Source: Bacillota bacterium (GTDB lineage: Bacteria > Bacillota > Dethiobacteria > DTU022). From it: a stretch of 64,000 nt of DNA. Within the stretch, counting starts at the first letter, position 1. Each line of letters opens with the position of its first letter. Both the position numbers and the translations under genes were made by a program. Below the pieces are notes generated by a model. That model was not told the origin of the DNA. It ran no database searches and saw only the letters and a list, made by a program, of their open reading frames with translations. The DNA lies in the NCBI GenBank assembly GCA_033549065.1, contig JAWSUE010000012.1, forward strand, positions 5,222 through 69,221. The letters are read 5' to 3'. Positions 8,532 through 59,636 of the stretch are shown one piece after another.

Positions 8532-9998
8532 ATGGATAAAGATCAAAATAGAAGGAATGTCCAGCCGGTTAAATTTTCAAAAAAGGTGGACTGGCTGGAT
8601 CCAAATCAGGTTGCCACCATACATCAGGCTTCAGTGGATATATTAAGCAAGATCGGAATCAAGATGCCCCACCCAAAAGTTCAACAAATACTGGGTCAGG
8701 CAGGTGCAAGAACTAACAGCACAAGCGGAAAAGTATATATCCCCGAAAAGTTAATTGAAGAGGCCATAAAAAAGGCTCCACAGACTTTTACCCTGGCTGC
8801 CAGGAACCCGGTTAATGACCTGCCGGTTAATGGTGAGTTTGGATACCTTTCGTTAGATGGGAGCGGGCTGCAGGTAATAGACCTGACCAGTGGAGAACTG
8901 CGCAGGTCAACATTGAAGGATCTTGAGGAAGCAGTTACTGTTGCCGATTATTTGAAAGAGATTTCTTTTCTCTGGCCGGTTATCAGCGCCCAGGATCGTC
9001 CCAAGAAGAAACAGCCGCTTTATGAATTATACGCCCAGCTGGCCAATTCAACAAAACATGTCCAGGCGATGACTGCGGTTGATCCTGAAGCGGCAGAAGG
9101 TTCAATCAGAATTGCCAAAGCAGTTGCCGGAAGCTCCGCGGCTCTGCGAAACCGTCCGATAATCTCTAATTTCCAGTGCAGCATCAGTCCCCTTGCTTAC
9201 GATCCTGAAGGGCTGGAAGCAGCAATGATCTTTGCCGATGCCGGTATACCAACCGGTTTTTTAACGATGCAGATCGGCTGTTCAACAGCTCCGGCAACCC
9301 TGGCCGGCAGTCTGGCCCAGGCTAATGCTGAAATCCTGGCCGGGATTGTCTTCCTCCAAACATATAAACCAGGCTGCCCGACTTTTTACGGTTCATGTGC
9401 CACAGTAATGGAACTGCATTCCGGAGCAGTTTGCTGTGGAGGCCCCGAAGACTTTTTGCTGCAGGCAATGTCTGCCCAGATGGCGCGCTACTATAATCTG
9501 CCTTCGAATATCGGCACCTTTGCCACCGGTGCTAAAGCATCAAACTGGCATGCCGGAGTTGAAAATGCCCTTTCGGGGATGTCAAGCATAATGGCCGGTG
9601 CTGATATGATGTGCGGGGCAGGGTTACTGGCCGGAGCATTAATATTTTCCTTCGAGCAGCTTTTGATGGACTGTGAGATATTTGAAATTATCAGGCGTTC
9701 AACCGAAAAGATTATTGTCGATGAAAATACTTTGGCTCTGGAGACAATTGCCGCTGTGGGATCTGACGACCATTTCATGGTTGAACCGCATACCCTGAAG
9801 CATATGCGGGAACTCTGGCAGCCTGCAGTAATGAACCGCAGTCCTTATGGCAAATGGCAGACTGAAGGCTGTCGTGAAGCTGAAGAAAATGCCCGGGAAA
9901 AGGCCTGGTGGATTCTTGAAAATCACAAGCCTGATCAGCTTGACGATAAGCTTAAGGCTGAAATTATAAACATAATCGAAGATCATAGCCAGCACTAG
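8532..9998 (+). CDS. MttB-superfamily (trimethylamine methyltransferase family) methyltransferase, pyrrolysine-free paralog 1
   Basis: 488 aa with full-length MttB-family similarity and no in-frame amber codon. The ATG immediately follows the stop of the upstream gene, and a GAGGT SD is present. Confidence 0.85.
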   Translation: MDKDQNRRNVQPVKFSKKVDWLDPNQVATIHQASVDILSKIGIKMPHPKVQQILGQAGARTNSTSGKVYIPEKLIEEAIKKAPQTFTLAARNPVNDLPVNGEFGYLSLDGSGLQVIDLTSGELRRSTLKDLEEAVTVADYLKEISFLWPVISAQDRPKKKQPLYELYAQLANSTKHVQAMTAVDPEAAEGSIRIAKAVAGSSAALRNRPIISNFQCSISPLAYDPEGLEAAMIFADAGIPTGFLTMQIGCSTAPATLAGSLAQANAEILAGIVFLQTYKPGCPTFYGSCATVMELHSGAVCCGGPEDFLLQAMSAQMARYYNLPSNIGTFATGAKASNWHAGVENALSGMSSIMAGADMMCGAGLLAGALIFSFEQLLMDCEIFEIIRRSTEKIIVDENTLALETIAAVGSDDHFMVEPHTLKHMRELWQPAVMNRSPYGKWQTEGCREAEENAREKAWWILENHKPDQLDDKLKAEIINIIEDHSQH

Positions 9999-16140: not shown

Positions 16141-16256
16141 TCGTGCAGAATTTGACATGATATCATCGACATGTTAGCATTTTTAAAGTACAGCTATTAA
16201 ATAATAGTTCTGTTCATCAAGATGCAGCCTAAGGATTTTGAAAGGAGAGAACACCT

Positions 16257-16745
16257 TTGATCAATGAAACTGAAAAGAAAGTATATGATACCCTTGAAGG
16301 ACTTGGAATTAGTTATAAAAGGTACGAGCATCCGCCGGTTTTTACCGTTGATGAAGCAAAACAATACTGGCAGAATATTGAAGGAGCTCACTCAAAGAAT
16401 TTATTTTTAAGAAACAATAAAGGCAATCGCCATTACCTTGTAGTCCTGGAAGATACAAAAACTGCCGACATTGGTGGTTTATCTGAAAAGCTTGCATCCG
16501 GAAAGCTGAGTTTTGCTTCCGAGCGCCGCCTTATGGAGCATCTTGGTCTCGAAACCGGAGCTGTATCCCCCCTGGGGATAATCAATGATCTAAAAAAAGC
16601 TGTTACCCTCGTTCTTGATAAAGATTTAAAGCGACATGAAACTGTAAATTTTCACCCCAATGTTAATACGGCAACAATCAGTATCGCTTACAATGATTTT
16701 GAAAAGTTTCTAAAGCATTTTGGAAATGAGATAGTTTATATTTAA
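16257..16745 (+). CDS. YbaK/ProX-type aminoacyl-tRNA deacylase domain protein
   Basis: Similarity to the prolyl-tRNA synthetase associated/YbaK domain. TTG start with an AAGGAGAG SD. Confidence 0.65.
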   Translation: MINETEKKVYDTLEGLGISYKRYEHPPVFTVDEAKQYWQNIEGAHSKNLFLRNNKGNRHYLVVLEDTKTADIGGLSEKLASGKLSFASERRLMEHLGLETGAVSPLGIINDLKKAVTLVLDKDLKRHETVNFHPNVNTATISIAYNDFEKFLKHFGNEIVYI

Positions 16746-16787: not shown

Positions 16788-18581
16788 ATGAAGGAGTTAA
16801 AAAGCATACAGGGGTTTTTACAACAGGTAACCGGAGCTTTTGCCGGAGTGGTTGATATTGAGATCGGGGTTATCAGTAAACGCCTGGAAGTAATAGCCGG
16901 AAGCGGCTATTTCGAAAAAGAGGTTGGGGTGGTTTATGACGAAGGCTGCATGACTTCCAAGATATTGTCATCACCGCATAACGATTCAATATTAGTCGAA
17001 AATACCACTCATGCTGTATGCTGTGCCGACTGTGATTACTCTGCCAGATGTGACGTTCTTGCATTCATGATGATGCCCATCCTTTTTAATGAAGAAAAAA
17101 TAGGCAGTATATCATTGCTGGCTCTTACCGAACAGCAGCGTCGTAAACTGCTGAATCAGTATGAAAAAATGCAAAACTTCCTCAATAAACTATGTAATAT
17201 GATAACTATCTCCCTGAATGAAAAGAAAATGGAAAGCAGGATTACCAGCCTGATGAACCAGTTCAGGGATGTTATTAATTCTGTATATGAAGGGGTTATT
17301 GCCTTCAATTCACAGGGCAGAATAACCAATATCAATAATGCGGCCAGGCAGATTTTAAGTCTTAAGTTGGATAGTCACCTGGGTGAGCATATAAGCGTCC
17401 TCTTTCCTGACTTTAACCTGAATGAAGTTTTCAACAGGCAGGAAACTGAAGACGACAGCCAGTACTACGGTAAAGAGATTATCTATATCGATTCGGATAA
17501 CGAACAGCTGCGCCTTTATTATAATATTACACTTATGTATGAGGATGATCGCATTTCCGGGGCGGTAATATCTTTTCGTAAAAAAGAAGAAGTGGAGGAA
17601 ATGGCCAACCGGATTATCAAGGAAAACAAAAAAACAACTTTTTCGGGGATTATCGGTACCAGCAGTGAATTAAACGAGATAAAGAAAAAGATGAAACTGA
17701 TAGCCTCCACTGATTCAACAGTATTGATTCGTGGTGAAACCGGTACGGGAAAATCAGTATTCGCCCGGGCCATACACGAAGAAAGTCCGAGAAGGGGCAA
17801 GCCTTTTATCTCGATCAGCTGTGCGGCCATTCCTGCTCCCCTGCTGGAATCTGAACTTTTCGGTTATGAAGAGGGTGCGTTTACCGGCGCCCGTAAAGGT
17901 GGAAAACCCGGTAAGTTTGAAATGGCCCATGAAGGAACAATCTTTTTGGACGAGATTGGTGATATGCCCCTTGATTTCCAGGTTAAATTGCTCCATGTGA
18001 TTGAGAATAAAAATATTGCACGAATCGGCGGTGTTTCTTTCAGGGATGTAGATGTTCGCATTATTGCCGCTACCAACCGCAACCTGGAAGAACTGATCGG
18101 GGAAGGGAAATTCAGGGAAGATCTTTTCTATCGTATCAATGTTATACCTTTCACCCTGCCTCTTCTCCGGGATCGCAAGGATGATATTTTGCTCTTAATG
18201 CATCATTTTCTTGATTACTATTCAAAGCGTCTGAATAAAAATGTAATTGGTTTCCAGGATGATGCCAGGGAGGCCATGCTGGTTTACCCCTGGCCGGGGA
18301 ATGTCCGTGAGCTGGAAAATGCCATAGAATACGCCATAAATATCGAATCTGATTCCAAAATTTCAAGGAAGAGCCTTCCCGAAAAAATTACCAGGCATTA
18401 CGGAGTTGCTGATCCAGGTGGATTTGAAGATTTGACAATACTGGAGAAAAAGGCCATTAAAGCGGCTTTGCTTAAATACGGGAATACCACTTTTGGAAAA
18501 GAAAAAGCAGCATCAGCCCTTGGCATTAGCAGGGCAACACTTTATCGAAAACTTAAATCAATCCAGCAGGATGTTTCTTGA
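16788..18581 (+). CDS. sigma-54-dependent transcriptional activator (N-terminal sensor domain, PAS, AAA+ sigma-54 interaction domain, Fis-type HTH)
   Basis: Walker A GETGTGKS, the GAFTGA motif, an [15 protein letters not shown] segment and a C-terminal HTH_8. It is paralogous to the gene at 54622..56421. Confidence 0.9.
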   Translation: MKELKSIQGFLQQVTGAFAGVVDIEIGVISKRLEVIAGSGYFEKEVGVVYDEGCMTSKILSSPHNDSILVENTTHAVCCADCDYSARCDVLAFMMMPILFNEEKIGSISLLALTEQQRRKLLNQYEKMQNFLNKLCNMITISLNEKKMESRITSLMNQFRDVINSVYEGVIAFNSQGRITNINNAARQILSLKLDSHLGEHISVLFPDFNLNEVFNRQETEDDSQYYGKEIIYIDSDNEQLRLYYNITLMYEDDRISGAVISFRKKEEVEEMANRIIKENKKTTFSGIIGTSSELNEIKKKMKLIASTDSTVLIRGETGTGKSVFARAIHEESPRRGKPFISISCAAIPAPLLESELFGYEEGAFTGARKGGKPGKFEMAHEGTIFLDEIGDMPLDFQVKLLHVIENKNIARIGGVSFRDVDVRIIAATNRNLEELIGEGKFREDLFYRINVIPFTLPLLRDRKDDILLLMHHFLDYYSKRLNKNVIGFQDDAREAMLVYPWPGNVRELENAIEYAINIESDSKISRKSLPEKITRHYGVADPGGFEDLTILEKKAIKAALLKYGNTTFGKEKAASALGISRATLYRKLKSIQQDVS

Positions 18582-18583
18582 TA

Positions 18584-18607
18584 TGAGAAAACTTCTCATA
18601 TTGAGAA
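18584..18607. promoter_or_regulatory. putative enhancer (UAS) site: TGAGAA / TTCTCATATTGAGAA palindromic half-sites
   Basis: The perfect inverted repeat TTCTC-N5-GAGAA lies about 160 bp upstream of the sigma-54 promoter, directly after the activator gene. Confidence 0.4.
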
Positions 18608-18661
18608 AACAGCAGCATTCGCTTATTTAGCCGTCTTTAAAATATTCTGATGATTTTAATT

Positions 18662-18676
18662 TTCTCATATTGAGAA
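18662..18676. promoter_or_regulatory. second copy of the putative enhancer palindrome TTCTCATATTGAGAA
   Basis: An exact repeat of the 15-bp palindrome, about 90 bp upstream of the -24 element. Confidence 0.4.
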
Positions 18677-18759
18677 ATATGGACTGTTTCAATTAAGAAA
18701 TGGTCTTTTATTATGCTTAATTTAATAGGTTTTTTTAAGCATGGCTCTCTGTTGTTTTA

Positions 18760-18775
18760 TGGCATGACTATTGCT
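18760..18775 (+). promoter_or_regulatory. sigma-54 (-24/-12) promoter TGGCAT-N5-TTGCT
   Basis: The GG and GC dinucleotides are spaced exactly as in the TGGCAC-N5-TTGCA consensus. It lies about 160 nt upstream of the BCCT gene. Confidence 0.6.
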
Positions 18776-18937
18776 TTATTAATAATTTAGCAGTTAGTAA
18801 GCATTTTTAATTCTGGTTAAATGCTCTCGAGCATCTTATCGGTGTTGTTTATTTTTGTTTTATTAGAAAGGGGATGTTAGATGGGGAAAGTAGTCGTGCC
18901 GTTTTTCCGCAAATAAATTTTAAGGAGGTATTTTGAT

Positions 18938-20512
18938 TTGCAAAACGGAGGTAGTCTTTATACAAAACCAACATTTTTAATTGCTCTTATCGTAATGGTA
19001 ATCTTTGTTTTATTAGGTGCTGCTGCGCCGGAGGCTTTTGGTGTCGCAACAGGTAATGTTTTTAGCTATATGGTTGATTCTTGGGGCTGGTCGTTTATCC
19101 TTGGCACCAGTATCTTTCTTTTTTTGATAGTTTTCTTACTGCTAAGTCCTGTTGGTGAGATTAAACTTGGTGGAGACGATGAGAAGCCCGCATACAACAA
19201 TGAAGTCTGGTTTGCTATGCTCTTCAGCTGCGGCATGGGTATCGGCCTGCTTTTCTGGGGTGTATCCGAGCCGATCTGGCATTACATGTGGCCGCCGCTT
19301 GGAGAAGCTGGTAATGCCGGGACTATTCACGTGGCTATGCGCTATGCTTTCTTCCACTGGGGCTTCCACCCCTGGGCTATTTATGCAGTAGTGGCCGGCT
19401 CACTGGCCTACTTCTCTTACCGCAAAGGTTTGCCCATGCTGCTCAGTTCATGCCTGGAGCCTATCCTTGGCCGTAAAGGAATTGAAGGTCCCTGGGGTAT
19501 TCTGGTAAATATCATCGGTGTATTTGCCACCCTCTTCGGCCTGGCCACATCGTTGGGTCTCGGGGCTATGCAGCTTGGCGCCGGATTGGAAAGCCTTTTC
19601 GGTATTCCTAGCACTCCGGCAATTTGGGTTACTATTGTGATAGTTATAACTGCCGCAGCGGTTATCTCAACTTCGACCGGTATTGATCGCGGCATTAAGT
19701 GGTTGAGCCAGATTAATATCGTGGTAGCCGGTTTGTTGATGCTGTTGGTATTTATTGTCGGTCCGACCCTCTTTATTCTTAACCTTTTAACCCACTCTGT
19801 CGGTGATTATCTGCAGAATATCATCTACATGTCGTTCGGACTTGATGCTGCCGGAGAAAATACTGAAGGTTGGTATGGAGCCTGGACCATCTTCTACTGG
19901 GCCTGGTGGATTGCCTGGGCACCTTTTGTAGGTACCTTTATTGCCCGTATTTCGAGAGGCCGGACGATCCGCAACTTTATTGTCGGTGTTATGCTTGTTC
20001 CTGTTGCTGTCAGCGTTGTCTGGTTCTCCGTTTTTGGTGGTTCAGCCCTCTGGATGGAGCACTTTGGCGGTGGCGGTATCGGGGAAGCAGTATCAGCTGA
20101 TTCCGCGATGGGTTTCTTTGCCTTGTTGCAGAATCTGCCGTGGTCTGGCTTACTGATAGTTGTTGCCATGTTTTCGGTGGCAGTGTTCTTCATTACATCC
20201 TCAGACTCGGGGACCTATGTTAATGGTATGCTTACATCAGGCGGAGATCCTAACCCGCCTCTGCCCCTGAGGATTACCTGGGGAGTTCTTGAAGGAGCTA
20301 TCGCTGCCATTCTGCTCTTTACCGGCGGCGCCGGTGCTTTGGGTTCACTTCAGACAGCATCTGTTGTTGGAGGGTTTCCCTTCATGATTATTATGTTCCT
20401 GATGCTATACTGCCTTTTCAAGTCACTCTATGCAGAGATGCGCGATGGTACTCTACCTCTGGAGAAAAAGCGGATCCAGGATGCTCTGAAGGAATTGCAA
20501 GCTGGTAAATAA
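18938..20512 (+). CDS. BCCT family (betaine/carnitine/choline) transporter
   Basis: Twelve-TM profile and the BCCT signature region WTIFYWAWWIAWAPFVG. TTG start with an AAGGAGG SD. Confidence 0.9.
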   Translation: MQNGGSLYTKPTFLIALIVMVIFVLLGAAAPEAFGVATGNVFSYMVDSWGWSFILGTSIFLFLIVFLLLSPVGEIKLGGDDEKPAYNNEVWFAMLFSCGMGIGLLFWGVSEPIWHYMWPPLGEAGNAGTIHVAMRYAFFHWGFHPWAIYAVVAGSLAYFSYRKGLPMLLSSCLEPILGRKGIEGPWGILVNIIGVFATLFGLATSLGLGAMQLGAGLESLFGIPSTPAIWVTIVIVITAAAVISTSTGIDRGIKWLSQINIVVAGLLMLLVFIVGPTLFILNLLTHSVGDYLQNIIYMSFGLDAAGENTEGWYGAWTIFYWAWWIAWAPFVGTFIARISRGRTIRNFIVGVMLVPVAVSVVWFSVFGGSALWMEHFGGGGIGEAVSADSAMGFFALLQNLPWSGLLIVVAMFSVAVFFITSSDSGTYVNGMLTSGGDPNPPLPLRITWGVLEGAIAAILLFTGGAGALGSLQTASVVGGFPFMIIMFLMLYCLFKSLYAEMRDGTLPLEKKRIQDALKELQAGK

Positions 20513-20547
20513 AGAAAAAGCAATATATAGTAGAGTTAAGGTATATT

Positions 20548-20580
20548 CCGCCGGATGCACTTTGCATCCGGCGGTTTATG
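20548..20580 (+). terminator. rho-independent terminator
   Basis: A CCGCCGGATGCA-CTT-TGCATCCGGCGG hairpin is followed by TTTATG. Confidence 0.55.
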
Positions 20581-20624
20581 CCACTCAATAAAAAAAAGAA
20601 TAGTCAGAAAGGAGTGTTTACTTA

Positions 20625-21257
20625 ATGGCAGATTTTGAATCTTTAGCGGGAGCCATTATTGATTGTAATGCGGCAAAAGCCGGCGAGATAACCCAGCAGT
20701 TGGTTGATGAAGGCGTTAAGCCGACAGAGATCATCAACAAAGGGTTAATCAGCGGGATGAATGTGGTAGGAGACCGTTTCAAGAAAGGCGACATGTATGT
20801 TCCCGAAGTGATGATGGCTGCGAAGGCGATGCATGCAGGGATGAATATTGTGAAGCCCTTGCTGGTGGAAGGTGAGAGTTCATCGACCGGCAAGGTAATA
20901 TTGGGCACGGTAGCCGGGGACCTTCATGACATCGGTAAGAACCTGGTTGGGATGATGATGGAATCAGGTGGGATGGAAGTAGTGGACTTAGGTGTGGACG
21001 TTACACCTGAGAAATTTGCGCAGGCTGTCAAAGAGCACAAGGCGCAGGTAGTGGGCTTGAGTGCGCTGTTGACGACGACGATGCTGGCGATGAAAGATAC
21101 GATTGAAGTATTGAAGGAAGAAGGTTTAAGAGATTCGGTCAAGGTTATAGTTGGTGGAGCGCCTGTAACCCAGGACTTTGCCGATGAGATTGGCGCCGAT
21201 GGATGGGCACCTGATGCCGCTTCGGCCAAGGACCTTGCCCAGAAACTGGCCGGTTAA
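20625..21257 (+). CDS. cobalamin (B12)-binding corrinoid protein of methyltransferase systems
   Basis: A B12-binding N-terminal helical cap plus a Rossmann domain carrying the DxHxxG motif (GDLHDIGKN). Confidence 0.9.
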   Translation: MADFESLAGAIIDCNAAKAGEITQQLVDEGVKPTEIINKGLISGMNVVGDRFKKGDMYVPEVMMAAKAMHAGMNIVKPLLVEGESSSTGKVILGTVAGDLHDIGKNLVGMMMESGGMEVVDLGVDVTPEKFAQAVKEHKAQVVGLSALLTTTMLAMKDTIEVLKEEGLRDSVKVIVGGAPVTQDFADEIGADGWAPDAASAKDLAQKLAG

Positions 21258-21301
21258 TCTAACCGCTCTTAAACCAAGTGGAGAAAGGAGAATTTGGGAA
21301 A

Positions 21302-22756
21302 ATGAAAAGTTGCTTTAAAGCACAGGGATCAACTTTCCTGCAGGTTCTCTCGGACGACCAGTGCCGGCGGTTGGTAGCAGCGGCGATGGAAGTTTTGGAA
21401 AGGACCGGAGTTACATATTTAGACGATGAAGCAGTTGACAGGATGAAAAAAGCAGGTTGCTATGTAGACGGTAAAAGGGTTCGGATACCTTTTAAGCTGG
21501 TTGAGAAAGCCCTGAACACTGTTCCGAGAAAGGTTTCACTCTGCAACAGCAGGACCGGTAAAAGGGTTATGGAGATGGAAGGCGGGAATGCTTATTTCGG
21601 AACCGGTTCCGATACTCCCAATTTTATTGATCCTTACACCCAGGAGAGAATTAAAGCAAGCAGGAAGACTGTTCAAATGGCCACCAAGGTCATCGATGCA
21701 CTTCCCAATCTTGATTTTGTAATGTCCCTGGGTATTGTCCAGGATGTTCACCAGCTGGTATACGATCGCTACCAGTTCGAAGCCATGGTCCTGAATACTT
21801 CCAAGCCGATCGTTATTACTGCGATCGATGAGCCAGGCTATTCAGATATCATCAAAATGTGCGAGTTGATAGCCGGCGGGGAAGAGGAATTGAGGAACCA
21901 CCCGTTTCTTACTCTTTATGCAGAGCCGATTTCACCCCTGCAGCACCCCAATGATTCAGCGCGCAAGCTGATGTTGGCAGCGAAGAAGGGACTACCTGTT
22001 GTATATACACCGTGTATCATGGCCGGCGGAACAGTACCGGCTACACTGGCCGGAGCCATGGCTAACGGTCTGGCCGAAAGCCTGAGCGGTTTGGTTCTTA
22101 ACCAGGTGACATCGGAGGGCAGCCCGTTCATCATGGGCGGCGTATTTACCGTTATGGATATGCAGACCACCATATTCTCATATGGTTCACCGGAATTTGA
22201 TCTGATGATGGCTGCTCTGGCAGATATTCATCATTATCTTGATCTTCCCATGTTCGGCACCTGCGGATGTACTGATGCAAAAGTTGTTGACGAACAGGCT
22301 TTGATTGAGGGTGCAATGTCAATTCTGCTTACAGCTCAGGCAGGAGCAAACCTGAACCATGATGTGGGATATATTGAGCATGGTAATACAGCATCGCTTG
22401 AATACCTGACAATCTGTGACGATTTAATTGGTATTGCCCGCAAGATAGTCAGCGGTATTGAGGTAAGCGACAAAACCCTGGCCCTTGATGTAATTGACAA
22501 AGTTGGCCCGGGCGGACACTTCCTCGGTGAGGAGCATACAATGAAGCACTTCAAGGAGCAGACCTGGTATCCCCGCTTGTTTGAGCGCCAGATCTATGAA
22601 AATTGGGCTGCCGACGGTTTTAAAACTCTCTTTGATAAAGCCAATGATAAAGTAATAGATATTCTCGAAAATTATGAACCTGAGCCTCTGCCGAAAGATG
22701 TGCAGCAGAAGATCAAGGATATCATTGCCGAAGCAGAATCTAAATTGAACAAGTAA
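21302..22756 (+). CDS. MttB-superfamily methyltransferase, pyrrolysine-free paralog 2
   Basis: Full-length MttB-family similarity with no amber codon. I prefer the ATG at 21302, 11 nt after GAGAAAGGAG, over the RBS-less GTG at 21278. Confidence 0.85.
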   Translation: MKSCFKAQGSTFLQVLSDDQCRRLVAAAMEVLERTGVTYLDDEAVDRMKKAGCYVDGKRVRIPFKLVEKALNTVPRKVSLCNSRTGKRVMEMEGGNAYFGTGSDTPNFIDPYTQERIKASRKTVQMATKVIDALPNLDFVMSLGIVQDVHQLVYDRYQFEAMVLNTSKPIVITAIDEPGYSDIIKMCELIAGGEEELRNHPFLTLYAEPISPLQHPNDSARKLMLAAKKGLPVVYTPCIMAGGTVPATLAGAMANGLAESLSGLVLNQVTSEGSPFIMGGVFTVMDMQTTIFSYGSPEFDLMMAALADIHHYLDLPMFGTCGCTDAKVVDEQALIEGAMSILLTAQAGANLNHDVGYIEHGNTASLEYLTICDDLIGIARKIVSGIEVSDKTLALDVIDKVGPGGHFLGEEHTMKHFKEQTWYPRLFERQIYENWAADGFKTLFDKANDKVIDILENYEPEPLPKDVQQKIKDIIAEAESKLNK

Positions 22757-22783
22757 ACCTTCTACATATTGGTGGGATATATC

Positions 22784-24799
22784 ATGGCAAACCTGGCTTT
22801 AGGGATTGACACAGGGGGAACATTTACCGATGGTGTAATATTCGACCTGGAAAAAAAATCAGTAAAAGCCAAAACGAAAGTGGAAACGACCAGGCATAAT
22901 CTGACCTTTGCTGTAAACCGATGTCTAGATCAACTGATTGAAGCATTTCAGGAGAGCAACAGCGGACAGGTAGATATAGGGCAGATCAAGATGGTTTCCT
23001 TATCCACTACACTAGCCACCAATGCCATAGTTGAAGGTCAGGGAGCCGAGGTAGGTCTGATCCAGATCGGTTTTGAAGCCCGGCAGGACCTACCTACTCC
23101 CTATGTCGCAGTAGTACCGGGTGGTTGCAATATCAAAGGCAGGATCAGGGAAGAACTTAATCTCGAAGCGATCGAGAAGGCAATCCTGGATATGAAGGAT
23201 CATGTTGATGCCTTTGCTGTATCCGGGTACTTGAGTATCAGGAATCCGATCCAGGAAATGCAGGTTGTCGAGATGATCCAGCGGCTCACCGGTTACCCGG
23301 TTGTTGCAGCACACCAACTGAGTACAGATCTTGGAATGCATGAGAGAACTGTCACGGCAATTCTCAATGCCCGACTGATGCCCCTGATTACCGATTTAAT
23401 GAATTCTGTCAAGCAGGGTATGGAGAGGCTTAACATCGAGGCTCCGCTCATGGTGGTCCGGGGTGATGGCAGTTTGATCAGCGAAACGAAAGCCCGGGAA
23501 AAGCCGATCGAGACAATCTTGTCCGGACCGGCCGCCAGTATAATCGGAGCGTTGACGTTAACCGGTGTTGAAGAAGGCATTGTCATTGATATGGGAGGGA
23601 CCACCACTGATGTTGCCGTTCTCAGAAATGGCAGGCCTTCGCTGAATAAAGAAGGGGCGAGTGTGGGAGGATGGTTAACCAGGGTCAAGGCAGCCAAGAT
23701 CACGACTATCGGCCTTGGTGGAGACAGCCTCATCCAGGTATCGAAAAATGCAGTACTTTCAATCGGACCGCAAAGGGTATTTCCTTTATGTTGGATCGCT
23801 TCAAAGTACCCTTACCTGACTGCTGAACTGGAAGAAATCAGGCCGATTGACTATGCTATTATGGATACTCAGCCATCGATCATTTTGAACTACATCAGGG
23901 ATCCGCTTAATATTAAACTCACCGCAACCGAAAAGCAAATAATAGATTTGATCAAAGACGGGCCTCATACACTCCATTACATCAGCCGGAAATTGCAGAA
24001 AGAGATTGACCTTTTGCCCTGGCATCGACTGGTTAATGTTGCTTCCGTTCACCGGGCGTCGTTGACTCCAACAGATATTTTGCATTTCCAGGGCAAACTG
24101 GAATTATGGGATATGAAAGCTGCTGAATTGGGAACGGCAATGCTTGCAACCCGTTACCGTCAGTCACCAGCTGAATTTGCTGAAAAAGTTTTGGAAGAGA
24201 TTCTTTTTAAACTTGCTGCGCTAACCCTGGACCGTCTTCTTGAAGAAGAGGGTGTAGTCCTATCACTTGCGGATGAAAAAGCTGCCAACTATATGCTGAG
24301 GAAGATAATTAGCAGAGATAATGGAGATACTAATAGTCAGGTTAAATTTTTTACCAGTCTGAATCATCCCATTGTAGCAGTTGGAGCTCCTGTCGATGCT
24401 TATTTTCCTGAACTGGCCGACAGGCTTCAGGCAAAACTTTTTCTGCCACAGTATGCCGATGTGGCCAATGCTGTTGGAACTGTCAGCGGTCAGGCAGTTG
24501 AAAGGATCTCAATATTAATTAAGCCCGGAGAGGGTGGAGGTTTTTTGGTTCACAGCCCTTACCAGAGAGAATTTTTTATGATCTTTGATGAAGCAGTAGA
24601 TTATGCATACCGAGAAGGTAAAAAATATGTTTATGAACAGGCTTCTGCAGGAGGAGCGGTTGAGATAGAAACATTGGTTGAAAGACAGGATCGCTACAGC
24701 AAGATTACTTCTACAGCAGAAGGAGATTCAATTGACAATAAACTCTTTATTGAAAGTATAATAGAGATATCAGCCGTTGGTAAACCCTGGAGCGGCTAA
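22784..24799 (+). CDS. hydantoinase/oxoprolinase (ASKHA ATPase) family protein
   Basis: The N-terminus LALGIDTGGTFTDGV is typical of hydantoinase-A/acetone-carboxylase-beta ATPases. About 670 aa. I prefer the ATG at 22784. Confidence 0.7.
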   Translation: MANLALGIDTGGTFTDGVIFDLEKKSVKAKTKVETTRHNLTFAVNRCLDQLIEAFQESNSGQVDIGQIKMVSLSTTLATNAIVEGQGAEVGLIQIGFEARQDLPTPYVAVVPGGCNIKGRIREELNLEAIEKAILDMKDHVDAFAVSGYLSIRNPIQEMQVVEMIQRLTGYPVVAAHQLSTDLGMHERTVTAILNARLMPLITDLMNSVKQGMERLNIEAPLMVVRGDGSLISETKAREKPIETILSGPAASIIGALTLTGVEEGIVIDMGGTTTDVAVLRNGRPSLNKEGASVGGWLTRVKAAKITTIGLGGDSLIQVSKNAVLSIGPQRVFPLCWIASKYPYLTAELEEIRPIDYAIMDTQPSIILNYIRDPLNIKLTATEKQIIDLIKDGPHTLHYISRKLQKEIDLLPWHRLVNVASVHRASLTPTDILHFQGKLELWDMKAAELGTAMLATRYRQSPAEFAEKVLEEILFKLAALTLDRLLEEEGVVLSLADEKAANYMLRKIISRDNGDTNSQVKFFTSLNHPIVAVGAPVDAYFPELADRLQAKLFLPQYADVANAVGTVSGQAVERISILIKPGEGGGFLVHSPYQREFFMIFDEAVDYAYREGKKYVYEQASAGGAVEIETLVERQDRYSKITSTAEGDSIDNKLFIESIIEISAVGKPWSG

Positions 24800-24863
24800 T
24801 CATAAACAATATTGTAGAAGGAGGTTTGGTTACCGGTACATTTCAAAACCGGTAAAGCGAAAA

Positions 24864-25658
24864 ATGATTATTATCGGAGAATTGATTAATTCAACCCGCA
24901 AGGCGATCAAGAAAGCTATAGACGAGCAGGATGTGGCCTATCTTCAGGATCTGGCCCTGAAACAGGAAGAGGCGGGAGCAGACTTCATTGATGTCAATGC
25001 CGGAGCATATGTCCATGATGAGGCAAAACACCTGGTCTGGTTAGTGGAGAAAGTCCAGGAGGTCGTTAGCAAACCTCTGGCTCTTGATAGTCCTGATCCG
25101 AAAGCTTTGCAGGAAGCATTAAAAGTACATAAAGGTGTACCCATGATTAACTCAATAAGCCTCGAGAAAGAACGTTACTCACAGTTGGTTCCCCTGGTCA
25201 AGGAAGCAGGAACTGAAGTGATTGCTCTCTGCATGAGCGATGAAGGTATGCCTGAAACCGCCGATGACCGGCTGGATGTAGCGAAAAGGCTTCTTGACAA
25301 CCTCGATAAAGATGGAGTTGATCTGACAAAGGTATTTCTAGATCCACTGATCAAACCGGTTAGTGTCAATGGAGAATATGGGCCGCAGGTCTTGGAAGCT
25401 ATTGAGAAAATAAAAAACCTCGAATCCGGCTGCCATATCACCAGCGGGCTGAGCAATATTTCTTTTGGTTTGCCACACCGCGCTCTTTTGAACCAGGCAT
25501 TTATCGTGCTTGCCATGGGACGCGGGATGGATTCAGCGATAGTTGATCCGCTGGACAAGAAGAAGATGAGCCTGGTAAAAGCAGCGGAGGTTATTCTAAA
25601 TCTCGATCCCTATGCCATGAATTATCTGAAGGCGTCCCGTGCCGATAAACTGATTTAA
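24864..25658 (+). CDS. methyltetrahydrofolate:corrinoid methyltransferase (MtrH/MtgA pterin-binding family)
   Basis: Starts MIIIGELINSTRK, typical of MtrH-family and methyl-THF:corrinoid methyltransferases, followed by a pterin-binding TIM-barrel. The upstream TTG-initiated extension carries no homology. Confidence 0.8.
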   Translation: MIIIGELINSTRKAIKKAIDEQDVAYLQDLALKQEEAGADFIDVNAGAYVHDEAKHLVWLVEKVQEVVSKPLALDSPDPKALQEALKVHKGVPMINSISLEKERYSQLVPLVKEAGTEVIALCMSDEGMPETADDRLDVAKRLLDNLDKDGVDLTKVFLDPLIKPVSVNGEYGPQVLEAIEKIKNLESGCHITSGLSNISFGLPHRALLNQAFIVLAMGRGMDSAIVDPLDKKKMSLVKAAEVILNLDPYAMNYLKASRADKLI

Positions 25659-25709
25659 CAGGACAGGCTGATTTTCTAGTTTAGTTTTAATTCGCGTGTT
25701 TAGGAAAGG

Positions 25710-27143
25710 GTGATAAGAATGATCAATCGCGATTTGAAAGCTGTAGACTACCTGAAGAGCGAAGATCTGGAAAAAATTCACCAGGCTACATTAACCGTAC
25801 TGGAGAAGAACGGTATAGAGTTTTACTCCCAGGAAGCAAGGGATATATTGAAGAAAAATGGAGCAAAAGTAGAAGGTGAGAGAGTCTTTTTCCCGCCTGA
25901 ACTGGTCATGGAAAAGATTGCCCTGGCTCCGTCTGAGTTTACTCTTCATGCCAGAAATCCTGAGAAAAATGTTGTTGTCGGTGGCAATAATACTGTTCAT
26001 GCACCAGGTTACGGTTCTCCATATGTGATGGATTATGTTCAGAACGCCAGGAGAAATGCTAACTATGATGACTATATAGCTTTTACAAAGCTCGCCGGCC
26101 GGAGTGAAAACCTTGATGTTGTCGGAGGCGTTCTTGTTGAGCCAAATGATATCCCCGATCATCTGAGACACGCAAAAATGTTTCATGCTGCTGTAAAATA
26201 TACAGACAAGTGCCTGATGGGCAGCGCTATGGGTAGTAAAAAAGCTCAGGAAACTATCGAGATGGCTTCGATTATATACGGGGGGATCGATACCGTTCGT
26301 ACAAACCCCTGCCTGATCTCACTGATCAATACCAATAGTCCCCTGGAATTCGATTCCCGAATGCTCGATGCGCTGATGGTTTATGCCCGTAATAATCAGC
26401 CGGTAATTATTGCTGCTCTGGCGATGACCGGCACAACATCGCCGGTTACCCTGGCCGGTTCACTGGTCCAGCAGGCGGCGGAGATCCTCTCTGGTATCAT
26501 ATTTGCCCAGATGGTCAGCCCCGGGACTCCGGTGGTCTTCGGTTCCGCGTCAAGTATCGTCGATTTACGGACAGGCAACCTGGCCATCGGCAGCCCCGAA
26601 TCAGTAAAGATGTTCTCGGTCATAGCGCAGTTAGCAAGATTCTACGGACTGCCATCACGCGGCGGTGGAGCGCTTACTGATGCCATAATTACAGACAGCC
26701 AGAGCGGTTATGAGTCAATGATGGTTTTAATGAATACAATTCTCAGCGGGACAAACTTCATCCTACACTCTGCCGGGCTGCTCGAGAATTATATGACCAT
26801 GTCATATGAAAAATTTGTTATAGATGATGAAATGCTCGGGATGGTTAAGTCATATGCAGAGGGTTTCCCGATCAATGAAGATACCCTGGCTGTTGATACG
26901 CTGCTTAGGGTTGGCAGTGGAGGCAATTTCATTGCAGATGAACATACCTTCAATCACATGCGGGATATGCGCCTGCCGTTTATCAGTGCTAGGATTAATT
27001 ATGCCGGGGCAACAGATTTGACTGATACTCCCCAGCGTGCGCATGAATATGTTAAATCGGTTCTGCAGGATTTCCAGAATCCACCCTTGGATGAAAAAGT
27101 TGAAGCTGAACTTGACAGCTATATTGAGAAGCTGAGCAAATAG
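25710..27143 (+). CDS. MttB-superfamily methyltransferase, pyrrolysine-free paralog 3
   Basis: 477 aa with MttB-family similarity throughout and no amber codon. Confidence 0.85.
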   Translation: MIRMINRDLKAVDYLKSEDLEKIHQATLTVLEKNGIEFYSQEARDILKKNGAKVEGERVFFPPELVMEKIALAPSEFTLHARNPEKNVVVGGNNTVHAPGYGSPYVMDYVQNARRNANYDDYIAFTKLAGRSENLDVVGGVLVEPNDIPDHLRHAKMFHAAVKYTDKCLMGSAMGSKKAQETIEMASIIYGGIDTVRTNPCLISLINTNSPLEFDSRMLDALMVYARNNQPVIIAALAMTGTTSPVTLAGSLVQQAAEILSGIIFAQMVSPGTPVVFGSASSIVDLRTGNLAIGSPESVKMFSVIAQLARFYGLPSRGGGALTDAIITDSQSGYESMMVLMNTILSGTNFILHSAGLLENYMTMSYEKFVIDDEMLGMVKSYAEGFPINEDTLAVDTLLRVGSGGNFIADEHTFNHMRDMRLPFISARINYAGATDLTDTPQRAHEYVKSVLQDFQNPPLDEKVEAELDSYIEKLSK

Positions 27144-27317: not shown

Positions 27318-27347
27318 TTGACATTTGTTGCTTGCACAGGCTATAAT
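27318..27347 (+). promoter_or_regulatory. sigma-70-type promoter TTGACA-N18-TATAAT
   Basis: Consensus -35 and -10 hexamers about 60 nt upstream of the cyclase-family gene. Confidence 0.55.
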
Positions 27348-33007: not shown

Positions 33008-33030
33008 GGCCTGACATAAAAGCATGATCA

Positions 33031-33132
33031 AACCTTCTTTCCGCACTGGGAGGCACCGTTGTTTCCAACTGTACCCTAACGTCCACTAGCCATGGTGATC
33101 ATATAAACACTTTAGGCTTGATGGATCGAAGG
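33031..33132 (-). promoter_or_regulatory. structured RNA element A, putative Moco/tungsten-cofactor (Moco RNA motif) riboswitch in the tupABC leader
   Basis: A ~100-nt element closed by a CCUUC/GAAGG helix. It is about 65% identical to element B, shares the UGCCUCCCA...GGAAAGAAGG segment, and is followed by a terminator. Confidence 0.5.
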
Positions 33133-33157
33133 TAAATATTTAGTTATATTCAAAATA

Positions 33158-33418: not shown

Positions 33419-33441
33419 ATTATACTCACTAAATATGAGTG

Positions 33442-33542
33442 AACCTTCTTTCCACAATGGGAGGCACAGCCGTTTCCAGCCATACCCTGCCGGCCATTTC
33501 TCGTGGCCTGAGCGAAGCGCTTTAGAGAAAATGGTTCGAAGG
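33442..33542 (-). promoter_or_regulatory. structured RNA element B, putative Moco/tungsten-cofactor riboswitch in the mop leader
   Basis: A paralogous copy of element A with a GGCCA-N7-UGGCC internal hairpin. The genomic context (mop, tupABC, W-type AOR) matches known Moco RNA motif associations. Confidence 0.5.
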
Positions 33543-33639
33543 AACTGCTTATTCGGTTTGCTTACATGTGCATTTTATAACAAAGAGAATTTGCAGTCAA
33601 GTCCTATAGAGGCTATGATAAGAATAATAATTCGAACAG

Positions 33640-35998: not shown

Positions 35999-36092
35999 GG
36001 GAGTAGTTAGCGGCCTGGTGGCGTTCCTGGACTTCAAATCCAGTGGCAGGGCAGCCCCCTGCGGTGGGTTCGATTCCCATCTACTCCCGCCA
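35999..36092 (+). tRNA. selC: tRNA-Sec (selenocysteine tRNA), anticodon UCA
   Basis: 94 nt with an 8-bp acceptor stem (GGAGTAGT/ACTACTCC), anticodon loop CUUCAAA, a long variable arm, a GGTTCGATTCC T-arm, discriminator G and an encoded CCA. Confidence 0.85.
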
Positions 36093-54303: not shown

Positions 54304-54344
54304 ACCAAATTTCCTTCCTTTTGCAGTCGGATATTAGTAATTCA

Positions 54345-54360
54345 TGCAATATTAGTGCCA
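54345..54360 (-). promoter_or_regulatory. sigma-54 (-24/-12) promoter, TGGCAC-TAATA-TTGCA in the minus sense
   Basis: A perfect consensus about 40 nt upstream of the aminotransferase start. Confidence 0.65.
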
Positions 54361-54505
54361 AATATGGCTAACAATGATCTTCTGTTATGGTTCCATTTGA
54401 AAACCAAAAAACCGCTGTATTGTCTTATTTTAAAGCTTTTTTTAAATTAATATTGTTAATCCAGGTATCTCAATATTAATAAATTCTAATTTGGCTGTCA
54501 TATTC

Positions 54506-54521
54506 TTCTCGATAATGAGAA
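54506..54521. promoter_or_regulatory. putative enhancer palindrome TTCTC-GATAAT-GAGAA
   Basis: An inverted repeat about 150 bp upstream of the minus-strand sigma-54 promoter, between the divergent activator gene and the operon. It resembles the TTCTC..GAGAA sites at 18.6 kb. Confidence 0.35.
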
Positions 54522-54621
54522 ATTATTTGAGACCTGGCTAAATTAACGGCAGGGTATCGGAGCGAGGTGACGAATAACTCTTAAAATGCTAAATCTAATT
54601 ATTTTAACGGAGACTTGCTGA

Positions 54622-56421
54622 ATGACCGGATTGATGCGTATACAACCGATGGTTCAGGACCTTGCGGAAGCGATAGCAGCAGCGCTTTCAATTGAGGTTG
54701 AAATAGTGGATGAAGAACTGACCGTAGTTGCCGGCAGCAGCTGCTACAAAGAAAAAATAGGGCAAAAAGAAGAACTGGGCCTTCTGGATAGTGATTTTTT
54801 ATATGCCAGAACATTACGCAGCGGGAAGTCGTTTGTGGTGAATGACCCGATCAGTGATCCCGGATACGATCCATCTTCACTTGAGGGGACTACTCCTGAG
54901 ATGGCCGAAATTTGTTCACCCATCCTTTTGGATCATAACGTTATCGGGGTTATAGGCTTGGTTGCTTTTGATAAAATGCAGAAGGAGAAGCTGATTTCCA
55001 AAACAGGAGCGGTCTTATCTTTTCTGCAGCATTTAAGCCGGTTTCTGGCAGCCAAGGTATCAGAAAGCGAAGCAGTTGATCGCCTGACCAGGGTTTCAAT
55101 TGAGCTTTCTACAATACTTGAAACTATTCATGAAGGAGCTCTGGCTATTGATGCCAATGGTGTGGTTACACATTCCAATACAACTGCAGAAAAGTTATTG
55201 AGACTAAACCGGAATGAAATTCTTGGCAAAAACCTGGGTGATTTCTGGGTAGATACTCCGGCGCTGGAAGTTTTGAAAACAGGTAAGGAATATATAGAAA
55301 AAGAAGAATTTTACCAGGCCAAAGGTCGTCGAAGTATGCACTTTATAGTTTCAGTGCGTCCCATCCCGGGACCTGACAGGCCTGACGGCGCTGTCGTCTC
55401 ATTTCGTGATATATCCGAAGCTCGCAGGCTGATCTATGATCTTAGCGCAACGGCTATGGATTATACTTTTGAAGATATAATCGGCGAAAGCAAATCGATC
55501 CTGCAGGTTAAAGAACAGGCTCTGAGAGTTGCCGCCGGAAATTCAACGGTCCTTATTACCGGAGAGAGCGGGACAGGTAAAGAAATATTTGCCCGGGCTA
55601 TACATTCGGCCAGTACCAGAAAAGAAGGTCCCTTTATCAGCGTCAACTGCGGAGCAATTCCGGAAACACTTCTGGAGAGTGAACTGTTTGGATACGAGGG
55701 AGGAGCTTTTACCGGGGCAAGAAAAGAGGGTAAGGCAGGCAAATTTGAACTGGCCAACGAAGGGACAATTTTCCTTGATGAAATCGGTGAAATGCCACTG
55801 CACCTGCAGGTTAAACTTCTGCATGTCCTGCAAAACAGGGAAGTTGAAAGGGTTGGTGGTTCAAAGAAAATCCCTGTTGATGTAAGGATAATTGCCGCCT
55901 CCAACCGTGATTTGGAAAATATGATGCACGAAGGAAATTTTCGTAAAGATCTCTATTTTCGCCTGAGTGTAATTCCCCTGCATATCCCCCCCTTGAAAGA
56001 ACGCCGAGAGGATATTCCGGCCCTGGTTGAGAGATGTCTCGATAAATATGCTCCCATGCTGAACAAAAAGTTTAATGCAATCGATCCGGACGCCATCAAG
56101 TGTTTGCTGCACTATCACTGGCCGGGAAATGTGCGGGAACTTGAGAATGCTGTGGAGTATGCTGTAAATATGGCTTCTGGAGATACTGTTACGCTGATGA
56201 GTCTGCCGCCCAGAATAAGGGAAACAGAGACTGATAAGATTATGACGGCAGATCTACCTCTGAAAGACCGGGTAAAAGAATATGAAAAAATTATACTGCA
56301 TGAATACCTGCAGAGATATGGCACATCTTTTGAGAGCAAAAATGATATTGCCGAAAAACTTGATATAAGCCGCGCAACTTTATATCGCAAGCTGGCCGAA
56401 CTCGGTCTCTCAAACAAATAA
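54622..56421 (+). CDS. sigma-54-dependent transcriptional activator (sensor domain, PAS, AAA+, HTH)
   Basis: GESGTGKE, the GAFTGA motif and a C-terminal Fis-type HTH. Its N-terminal sensor domain is paralogous to that of the activator at 16788..18581. Confidence 0.9.
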
Positions 56422-58385: not shown

Positions 58386-59636
58386 CTACTCCTTTTCTGA
58401 GGGGCGATGTGGCTTTTCGTCAAGGCCAAATGTATTATGAATAGCCCTGACAGCAAGTTCACCATATTTCTCTTCTATAACGCAGGATATTCGATATTCA
58501 GAAGTACTGATCATCTCGATATTGATATTTTCATCAGCCAGCGATTTGAACATTCTGAATGCCACCCCGGGATGGCTTTTAATCCCTATCCCAACAGCTG
58601 AAACCTTTACTATGTTATTATCAGCCAGCATTTCCAGAGCCCCGATTTCTTCGGTCACTATACTGACCAGTTTGCTTGCATGATCCAACTCGGAGGTTGG
58701 CACTGTGAAGGTGAAGTCGGCGAAACCGTCGATACTGGCGTTCTGAATAATCATATCGACATTAATTGCCGCGTCGGCCAGGGGAGAGAGGATTCTGTAA
58801 GCAATTCCCGGACGGTCGGGAACCCTGATTAGTGAGATTTTCGATACATTTTTTTCCAGGGTCACACCCTTGATTATTAAGTTTTCCATTTCATCCTCCT
58901 CGTTAACAATCCAGGTTTCCCTGTCTCCCCCAAACGATGATTTAACCACCAGGGGCACCTGGTACTTTTGAGCCAGTTCAACTGAACGGGCATGCAGTAC
59001 TTTTGCTCCAAGCCCAGCCAATTCAAGCATTTCCTGGTATGACACCTTTTCAAGATGGCGGGCATGGGGGCATATACCTGGGTCGGCAGTATACACTCCA
59101 TCAACATCAGTATATATCTCGCAACAGTCAGCCTTCAGGGCAGCTGCAAGAGCAACTGCGGTTGTATCAGATCCGCCACGACCGAGAGTTGTAATACTTC
59201 CGTCTTCGGCAACCCCCTGAAAACCGGTTATAACCGGTATTATATCTTCCTGAATTGTTTTTTCAAGAACTTCTGTCTGCAGATCAAGAATACGAGCCCG
59301 GTTATGAATATTGTCGGTTACAAGAGGAAGCTGCAAACCCAGGAAAGACCTTGCAGTCTGCCCCAGGCTTACCAAAGTCATTGCCAGCAAGGCGGCGCAA
59401 GCCTGTTCTCCGGTAGCAAGCAGTGCGTCCAGTTCTCGTGCAGAAGGGTTTGTCGTAATCTCACCAGCCAATTCAAGTAAATGATCAGTTTGATCTCCCA
59501 TGGCGGAAACTACGACAGCTACCCGGTTTCCTTCCTGTCTGGCCTTGGCAACCTTAACTGCTACCCTGCGGATATGGTCGATGGATGCAACCGAGGTGCC
59601 ACCATATTTCTGAATAATCAAGGCCAAAATGTTCAC
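58386..59636 (-). CDS. lysC: aspartate kinase
   Basis: The amino-acid kinase N-terminus (KYGGTSV) and two C-terminal ACT domains. GTG start; the exact start is uncertain. Confidence 0.85.
   Translation of the reverse strand: MNILALIIQKYGGTSVASIDHIRRVAVKVAKARQEGNRVAVVVSAMGDQTDHLLELAGEITTNPSARELDALLATGEQACAALLAMTLVSLGQTARSFLGLQLPLVTDNIHNRARILDLQTEVLEKTIQEDIIPVITGFQGVAEDGSITTLGRGGSDTTAVALAAALKADCCEIYTDVDGVYTADPGICPHARHLEKVSYQEMLELAGLGAKVLHARSVELAQKYQVPLVVKSSFGGDRETWIVNEEDEMENLIIKGVTLEKNVSKISLIRVPDRPGIAYRILSPLADAAINVDMIIQNASIDGFADFTFTVPTSELDHASKLVSIVTEEIGALEMLADNNIVKVSAVGIGIKSHPGVAFRMFKSLADENINIEMISTSEYRISCVIEEKYGELAVRAIHNTFGLDEKPHRPSEKE

Follow-up and report, generated by a model that had tools for sequence, protein, structure and literature searches.

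The 64,000-nt window that we analyze here (the whole stretch of contig JAWSUE010000012.1, from a Bacillota bacterium, with positions counted from its first letter) includes a gene for a sigma-54 enhancer-binding protein (EBP), which we call the activator, and, next to it, the gene of a BCCT-family transporter. The region between the two genes carries three related dyads, an intrinsic terminator and an element of the -24/-12 type. A small YbaK-like gene precedes the activator gene, and the transporter gene is followed by genes for a corrinoid protein, two MttB-family methyltransferases, a hydantoinase-family protein and a pterin-binding methyltransferase. Table 1 collects the coordinates of these features. 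We will argue that the arrangement is very probably a local, activator-dependent sigma-54 switch for an operon of uptake and demethylation of a quaternary amine, the best candidate for which is glycine betaine.

Table 1. Features of the activator locus in the order in which they occur in the window. UAS, upstream activating sequence; ORF, open reading frame; SD, Shine-Dalgarno sequence; Pyl, pyrrolysine. Negative positions are relative to the predicted transcription start.
Feature	Position	Strand	Remarks
Sigma-70-like promoter, TTGACA-17-TAGCAT with TG extension	16152-16180	+	consensus scan, 10/12 matches
YbaK/tRNA-editing-domain gene	16257-16745	+	Pfam tRNA_edit; 42 nt 5′ of activator gene
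Sigma-54 EBP (activator), 597 aa	16788-18581	+	ORF intact; TGA stop 18579-18581
UAS1, TTCTTGATATGAGAA, imperfect dyad	18575-18589		covers the activator's last codons and TGA; center about -204; 20.3 bits
UAS2, TTCTCATATTGAGAA	18593-18607		18 bp from UAS1; center about -186; 21.8-23.5 bits
UAS3, TTCTCATATTGAGAA	18662-18676		69 bp from UAS2; center about -117
Intrinsic terminator, 10-pair stem-loop and T-run	18681-18716	+	terminator scan; directly 3′ of UAS3
Predicted sigma-54 promoter TGGCATGACTATTGCT, TGGCAT-N5-TTGCT	18760-18775	+	GG at 18761-18762, GC at 18773-18774
Leader mini-ORF	18866-18916	+	SD GAAAGGGG-N7-ATG (18881), 11 codons MGKVVVPFFRK, TAA
BCCT transporter, first gene of the predicted operon	18938-20512	+	Pfam BCCT 613 bits; SD AAGGAGG 18922-18928
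G+C-rich 12-bp hairpin, then TTTAT	20548-20574	+	between BCCT and corrinoid genes
Corrinoid (B12-binding) protein, MtgC-like	20625-21257	+	Pfam B12-binding, B12-binding_2
MttB-family methyltransferase 1, non-Pyl	21278-22756	+	Pfam MTTB; ORF uninterrupted
Hydantoinase/oxoprolinase-family (ASKHA) protein	22769-24799	+	Pfam Hydant_A_N, Hydantoinase_A, weak MutL
Pterin-binding methyl-corrinoid:tetrahydrofolate methyltransferase, MtgA-like	24777-25658	+	Pfam Pterin_bind
MttB-family methyltransferase 2, MtgB-like	25710-27143	+	close relative of glycine betaine methyltransferase MtgB
Perfect sigma-70 consensus TTGACA-18-TATAAT	27318-27347		before a 565-aa cyclase-family gene

The activator has the parts by which a bacterial EBP is recognized: an AAA+ domain with Walker A and B motifs and GAFTGA, a helix-turn-helix (HTH), and an N-terminal regulatory module. 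Pfam reports Sigma54_activat (PF00158) with 231.9 bits, plus AAA_lid_14, HTH_8 and PAS, and the domains are ordered as a GAF-like sensor (residues ~1-150), PAS (~157-261), the AAA+ Sigma54_activat domain (288-454) and a Fis-type HTH_8 (552-590). The AAA+ motifs can be read directly in the translation, with Walker A as GETGTGK at 316, ESELFG, GAFTGA at 363, and DEIG at 388. A protein with this domain content is predicted to activate the sigma-54 holoenzyme in an ATP-dependent manner. An exact-sequence look-up of the activator matched no record. The best-scoring named model is PrdR, the activator of the Clostridioides difficile proline reductase, which has a similar sensor-PAS-AAA+-HTH layout and an amino-acid/amine catabolic operon as its target. 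But the activator is not PrdR, because it scores 393.3 bits to NF041552 versus an equivalog cut-off of 795. The UAS of PrdR, TGT-N10-12-ACA (PMC6615313), also differs from the dyad motif found here.

An initial annotation of this DNA, made from the sequence alone, put the end of the activator gene at 18581, as the intact ORF does, and described the region after it as carrying twin copies of a perfect palindrome. The two exact copies of TTCTCATATTGAGAA are indeed where it placed them (UAS2 and UAS3 in Table 1). The element, though, is an inverted repeat of two 6-bp arms (TTCTCA and TGAGAA) about a 3-bp center, and as it differs from its own reverse complement, it is not a perfect palindrome. 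Nor are there only two sites. There are three, because a lone GAGAA (18585-18589) turns out to be the right half of another full dyad, UAS1, which takes in the activator's stop codon.

The same annotation proposed the TGGCAT-N5-TTGCT element at 18760-18775 as a sigma-54 promoter about 160 nt before the BCCT start. We agree with the position and with the spacing. The GG and the GC of the element are one helical turn apart, in the canonical -24/-12 register, and the BCCT ORF starts (at 18938) 163 nt past the element. With the C in the -12 GC numbered -12, transcription is predicted to start near 18786.

Motifs of this kind have to be judged against what a window of this size produces by chance. 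A loose dyad pattern is found in the 64-kb window at chance frequency, and so is a loose sigma-54 pattern. The exact consensus TGGCAY-N5-TTGCW, on the other hand, is found 3 times versus 0.25 expected, a 12-fold enrichment, and in 100 shuffles not one reaches 3. For the dyads, we used a weight matrix built from 84 ortholog sites, with the window itself left out. The three sites in the window score 20.3-23.5 bits, while the next best site in the 64 kb has 11.5 bits, and the best score over 20 shuffled windows is 16.7 bits. The only three sites above 20 bits in the whole 64 kb are all within the activator-BCCT intergenic region.

The orthologs come from a scan for relatives of the activator, one genome per species, which resulted in ~35 loci with 57-79% identity (72-79% for all except L030, which has 57%). 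The source of these loci is a set of soda-lake metagenome-assembled genomes (MAGs) labeled 'Syntrophomonadaceae' or Bacillota. Footprint counts given below rest on 30 orthologous loci, spacing and promoter-anchored comparisons on 29, and the comparison of leaders on 27. Three activator paralogs, L031-L033 (35-40% identity), were kept out of the ortholog set because their neighbors are unrelated (among them peptidase C26 and Na/Ala symporter, MoxR, Usp). The gene order across the loci is MORN-repeat protein, YbaK-like, activator, BCCT, corrinoid protein, and the MORN-YbaK-EBP synteny is present in most of L001-L036 with a contig long enough to see it. Many of these contigs stop in or just past the corrinoid gene, ~2.2-2.5 kb beyond the activator gene, which is consistent with assembly breaks at the multi-copy corrinoid/MttB paralogs.

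Aligned 3′ of the activator gene, these loci show sharp footprints amid otherwise diverged sequence. The dyads are at -3, +15 (or +16), and ~+84 from the last coding base in 28/30 loci, with UAS1 at exactly -3 in 27 of the 30, and the -24/-12 element (TGGCA-N6-TTGC) is at +183 to +196, again in 28/30. The consensus of the dyad in the orthologs is TTmTyA-WWW-TGAkAA. The geometry is conserved as well: UAS1 and UAS2 are 18 bp apart in nearly all loci, UAS2 and UAS3 are 68-81 bp apart, and in 26/29 loci TGGC follows UAS3 at 98-102 bp. The enhancer-to-promoter layout called textbook in the initial annotation is strongly backed by the domain content of the activator, by footprinting across ~30 species, and by one cultured relative, to which we return below.

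Could the promoter match be fortuitous, with transcription of the operon starting instead at an intergenic sigma-70 promoter, or running on from the activator gene? A few observations do weigh in that direction and against sigma-54. A weak sigma-70-like match, ATGGCA-16-AATAAT (9/12), overlaps the -24/-12 element, and the loose sigma-54 patterns of the window are, as mentioned, at chance level. No rpoN (Sigma54 factor domain) was seen in a scan of 40 of the 51 window ORFs with at least 150 aa. The -24 hexamer ends with a T and not a C, and half of the orthologs also have a T; a T at this last position is common in Firmicutes. These have to be set against the pattern of conservation. In the promoter-anchored alignment of 29 sequences, the block with the 16-bp -24/-12 element (TGGCAygAaTATTGCttt) is the only conserved one from -45 to +60, and the loci do not share a -35/-10 pair at any fixed position. 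Moreover, the exact consensus, besides being enriched in the window, is paired there with two EBP genes. Read-through can be addressed with the terminator. A hairpin and then T-rich sequence come right after UAS3, upstream of the promoter element, in most of the 29 loci (L012, L014 and L035 do not fit), and because this position recurs while the stems share no sequence, we read it as the signature of an intrinsic terminator. Such a terminator insulates the sigma-54 promoter, which disfavors read-through from the activator gene. Taking both sides together, we find it highly improbable that the operon is driven by sigma-70 or by read-through.

The terminator is probably the end of the ybaK-activator transcript, which the sigma-70-like promoter at 16152-16180 likely drives, and it would lie inside the enhancer-promoter loop. 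Since it directly follows UAS3, the activator transcript would cross all three enhancer sites and stop in the loop.

A different question is whether the dyads are the enhancers of this activator at all. They could be operators for some other protein, or UAS1 and UAS2 could be the two sides of a 3′-terminal hairpin of the activator mRNA. There is something to be said for either. In the window, UAS1 can be paired with UAS2 as an inverted repeat of 16 nt across a gap of 3 nt, and 14/16 positions are complementary. And the Fis-type recognition helix of the activator is not distinctive, being shared with the EBP paralog in the window, which weighs against assigning the dyads to the activator; since the helix is common to both proteins, binding specificity is unreadable from the protein. 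The hairpin can be examined by exchanging partners between loci. In 29 sequences, the UAS1-UAS2 pairing is 11.55 of 15 versus 11.46 for between-locus shuffled partners, and 31% of the shuffles are as good. Because the true pairing is no better than that of shuffled partners, what is conserved is a DNA motif and not a helix, and we reject the hairpin. Binding of the dyads by a different protein is unlikely too, given that they always accompany this activator family and a -24/-12 element, at enhancer-like distances, including in the duplicated modules and in the Fuchsiella genome described below, and that this type of dyad has been assigned to the DioR group of sigma-54 activators (PMC6615313). 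We regard it as improbable that the dyads are anything other than the enhancers of this activator.

The comparison with DioR is instructive. Sigma-54 regulons in Clostridiales have multiple UAS 100-250 bp upstream, and an activator gene beside a single target operon (PMC6615313), and the layout of this locus follows the same grammar. For the DioR group (and CdsR2), the UAS is TTATCA-N3-TGATAA or TTCTCA-N3-TGAGAA, often in tandem ~18 bp apart (PMC6615313 Table S3), 100-250 bp upstream of a TTGGCAT-N5-TTGCT promoter and with the activator gene adjacent (PMC6615313). As an example, DioR sites ATTCTCGAATTGAGAATA and TATTATCATTTTGATAATA are at -217 and -199 (PMC6615313 Table S3). The sites here are of the DioR type, both as a TTmTCA-N3-TGAkAA dyad and in the ~18-bp tandem spacing, a likeness at the level of the dyad. 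The targets differ: they are of the dpaL, ygeW, xdh, pbuX type for DioR, versus BCCT, corrinoid protein and MttB here. Nie et al. 2019 (PMC6615313) include no betaine, corrinoid or methyltransferase regulon.

From all of these elements, a sigma-54 switch would work as follows. The activator gene would be co-transcribed with the ybaK-like gene from a sigma-70 promoter, in a transcript ending at the intrinsic terminator (stem-loop and T-run, 18681-18706). Dimers of the activator would then occupy the three 15-bp dyads, centered ~204, 186 and 117 bp before the start. When the GAF/PAS module senses its effector, for which glycine betaine or a close derivative is the obvious candidate, the bound dimers would form an active AAA+ ring, and a DNA loop of ~100-200 bp would bring the ring to the sigma-54 RNA polymerase waiting in a closed complex on TGGCAT-N5-TTGCT. 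ATP hydrolysis by the ring would open the promoter. The resulting transcript, from ~18786, would include the genes for BCCT, corrinoid protein, MttB, putative activase, pterin methyltransferase and the MtgB-like protein (18938-27143).

What would such an operon be for? The gaps between its genes, in order from BCCT to MttB 2, are 112, 20, 12, -23 and 51 nt, and its end is most likely at 27143, because a perfect sigma-70 consensus precedes the next gene. The gene set is of the MtgB type, with a non-Pyl relative of MtgB, a B12-binding protein and a Pterin_bind protein, all in uninterrupted ORFs. MttB 2 matches the Desulfitobacterium hafniense MtgB (2QNE, 9YCE) with 496 bits (E-value 6e-148). The pterin methyltransferase scores 340.9 to NCBIfam NF005719, a methyl-THF:corrinoid methyltransferase model, above the cut-off of 259. 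The BCCT protein is at 613.7 for the NCBIfam 'glycine betaine uptake BCCT transporter', below the cut-off of 650, and the corrinoid protein is below the cut-offs of the NCBIfam MtgC models (228 vs 370, and 217 vs 310). The locus is thus like the MtgB/MtgC/MtgA system of D. hafniense, in that an MtgB relative, a corrinoid protein and a pterin-binding methyltransferase occur together with no pyrrolysine codon, and it goes beyond it with two more proteins, a further, divergent MttB that is likewise non-Pyl and a putative activase of the hydantoinase family. Fuchsiella and Acetohalobium, too, have the gene of this putative corrinoid reactivase in their homologous clusters. Because MttB 2 has 496 bits to MtgB and the BCCT protein is just under its equivalog cut-off, the substrate of the operon is most likely glycine betaine. 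A point against carrying this over to the inducer is MttB 1: as no substrate is assigned to it, a different quaternary amine could be the inducer.

MttB 1 is a divergent paralog, and it has a Cys aligned at the pyrrolysine position of 7XCL. Rfam reports a match to PYLIS_3, the mttB pyrrolysine insertion element, in its gene (22268-22367, 45.9 bits), which we do not accept as evidence of pyrrolysine because the ORF has no in-frame stop and a Cys aligns with the Pyl of 7XCL. The match probably reflects homology of the coding sequence. Between the BCCT and corrinoid genes, the hairpin at 20548-20574 could act as a partial terminator or stabilize the mRNA; L020, a locus that seems to have lost its BCCT gene, keeps the hairpin sequence in its leader.

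Several loci depart from the common layout in ways that are informative about what the regulatory module belongs to. In L015 and L020, which do not have the BCCT gene, the promoter faces the corrinoid gene, and in the most distant ortholog, L030, the module precedes corrinoid-MttB. In L005 (6670-6881) and L014 (6400-6890) the three dyads and TGGCA-N6-TTGC occur a second time after the BCCT gene, with dyad spacings of 18 and 68/69 bp. The second module of L014 runs on via the leader SD-ATG to the corrinoid gene, and the contig of L005 ends just past the promoter of its second module. These layouts tie the module to the methyltransferase genes, and not to the transporter alone.

Two genomes outside of this group of MAGs are also relevant. 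Fuchsiella alkaliacetigena (GCA_023227765.1, L070), a cultured haloalkaliphilic acetogen, has an activator that is 55% identical, and in the region 1408-1683 of that locus dyads are at 1408, 1426 and 1495, which is the identical 18/69-bp spacing. They are followed by TGGAATAATACTTGCA (TGGAAT-N5-TTGCA), and the order of genes in the operon is Corr-MttB-MttB-hydantoinase-like (activase)-pterin methyltransferase-BCCT-MtgB-like. Acetohalobium arabaticum (L069, 8150-9343) counts against a general rule. The regulator ahead of its homologous MttB/BCCT/corrinoid/hydantoinase-like/pterin cluster is of the CdaR/PucR type and not a sigma-54 activator, and for this reason we take the sigma-54 control to be lineage-specific. 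After the Acetohalobium cluster come grdX and glycine reductase genes.

The architecture could stand as described and still have a different input. The N-terminal 155 residues of the activator (window positions 16788-17252) are modeled with a pLDDT (predicted local distance difference test) of 95 as a GAF fold, and the best structural matches of this sensor domain are SpoVT, the Nlh2 GAF domain, CodY and the NifA GAF domain. Only 3 relatives came out of a word-indexed search with the sensor half; an exhaustive HMMER search found 316 representatives, nearly all of them the N-termini of EBPs of ~590 aa. The sensor has a CxxCx5C triad (C79, C82 and C88) with at least 90% conservation in 32 sampled family members, whose presumed targets are very different, and the triad is absent from the second EBP of the window. 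As the sensor that carries this triad has a GAF fold, a metal or redox input is possible, and the triad could be a metal or Fe-S site. Some GAF folds hold metal or haem centers, for instance those of NorR and DosS/DosT. In that case, the domain would report redox or cofactor status, and quaternary amines would act indirectly or via the PAS domain. Conservation throughout the family suggests a generic cofactor over a substrate-specific pocket. However, the three Cys could be structural, and the usual signal for a single-operon activator located beside catabolic genes is the substrate or an intermediate of the pathway (Nie et al. 2019, PMC6615313). We consider the metal or redox sensor unlikely, yet a possibility to be taken seriously.

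Downstream of the promoter, the leader has a further recurrent element. The ATG of the mini-ORF of Table 1 is 57 nt before the BCCT start, and a leader SD-ATG is found in ~23/27 loci, 53-80 nt before the main start, and also in the duplicated module of L014. The peptide itself is unconserved, and it goes from ATG-stop to 31 unrelated codons; it is ATG-stop in L009, L012, L013, L021 and L025, and by eye in L027. We can reject a riboswitch or otherwise structured leader: Rfam has no match on 18560-19000 at either gathering or E≤1 thresholds, and RNAalifold on the leaders finds no consensus pairs, which is a weak negative, since several rows are anchored 15 nt off. The leader element looks like a translated mini-ORF or a ribosome-loading site. 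A more speculative proposal, which we think has rather little chance of being right in full, is that the mini-ORF acts as a start-stop or ribosome-loading element gating the translation or stability of the operon mRNA, with the GAF triad sensing a metal or redox cue and not an amine. If true, it would add a second, post-transcriptional layer to the sigma-54 switch.

How much of this is new? The initial annotation suggested that sigma-54 control had not been described for MttB-family betaine methyltransferases, but two reports precede it. In Sporomusa sphaeroides KIAC, SigL-type promoters have been mapped and sigma-54 regulators found in the betaine-induced opuD/mtgABC/mttBC/grd cluster (PMC12456013, 2025), and a 2025 survey using position-specific scoring matrices lists MttB (COG5598) among the predicted sigma-54 targets in Clostridia (PMC12316311). 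The link between sigma-54 and betaine methyltransferases is therefore already known, and the design is a textbook one; the understanding of sigma-54 regulation itself is unchanged. The Sporomusa case is similar to ours in that a sigma-54 promoter and a regulator lie within an opuD/mtg/mtt cluster, with promoters of the form TGGCA-N6-TTGC (PMC12456013). There, opuD stands for betaine transporters and mtgABC for a betaine methyltransferase, so that both loci pair a sigma-54 activator with a BCCT and a corrinoid methyltransferase system of the MttB family. It differs in the organism, a member of the Negativicutes versus a soda-lake Bacillota MAG; in the cluster, which in Sporomusa is 58 kb long, with several promoters, grd genes and no UAS motif reported (PMC12456013); and in that transcription starts were mapped there while the start at this locus is predicted only. 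For D. hafniense, our literature search found no paper linking MtgB to sigma-54.

What the present analysis provides, for an uncultured lineage of soda lakes, is a comparatively validated regulatory map (enhancers, nested terminator, promoter and leader) of the anaerobic demethylation of glycine betaine. The map carries the sigma-54 connection of betaine methyltransferases beyond Sporomusa, into soda-lake Bacillota and Halanaerobiales, and to the Sporomusa report it adds an activator-site motif and its geometry (18 bp, 69 bp and ~100 bp). Importantly, Fuchsiella alkaliacetigena offers a cultured organism for testing the model.

Elsewhere in the window, a second EBP gene (54622-56421, intact, GAF-PAS-AAA+ with GAFTGA) belongs to a module that spans 54304-56421. 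It is divergent from an operon of aminotransferase, aldehyde:ferredoxin oxidoreductase (AFOR), SSF transporter and saccharopine dehydrogenase genes. This second operon is preceded by TGGCACTAATATTGCA, a promoter at 54345-54360 on the minus strand, and ~150 bp upstream of that promoter there is a related dyad, TTCTCATTATCGAGAA, with a 6-nt center (54506-54521). A second EBP together with an exact sigma-54 consensus gives indirect support to an rpoN gene in this genome outside the window. The third exact consensus of the window, TGGCACCTCGGTTGCA, at 59586-59601 on the minus strand, is in the 5′ end of an aspartate-kinase ORF. Two HGD-D (2-hydroxyacyl-CoA dehydratase) genes lie upstream of this third match, which may be due to chance or be an internal promoter.

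A third MttB-family paralog is located upstream of the locus, at 8532-9998, and near it we find neither dyads nor a sigma-54 promoter. Finally, the window has two tandem aptamers of the molybdenum cofactor (Moco)/tungsten riboswitch on the minus strand (33018-33143 and 33429-33553), upstream of ABC transporter/molybdate-transporter genes, and near these aptamers a tRNA-Sec gene on the plus strand (35999-36088).

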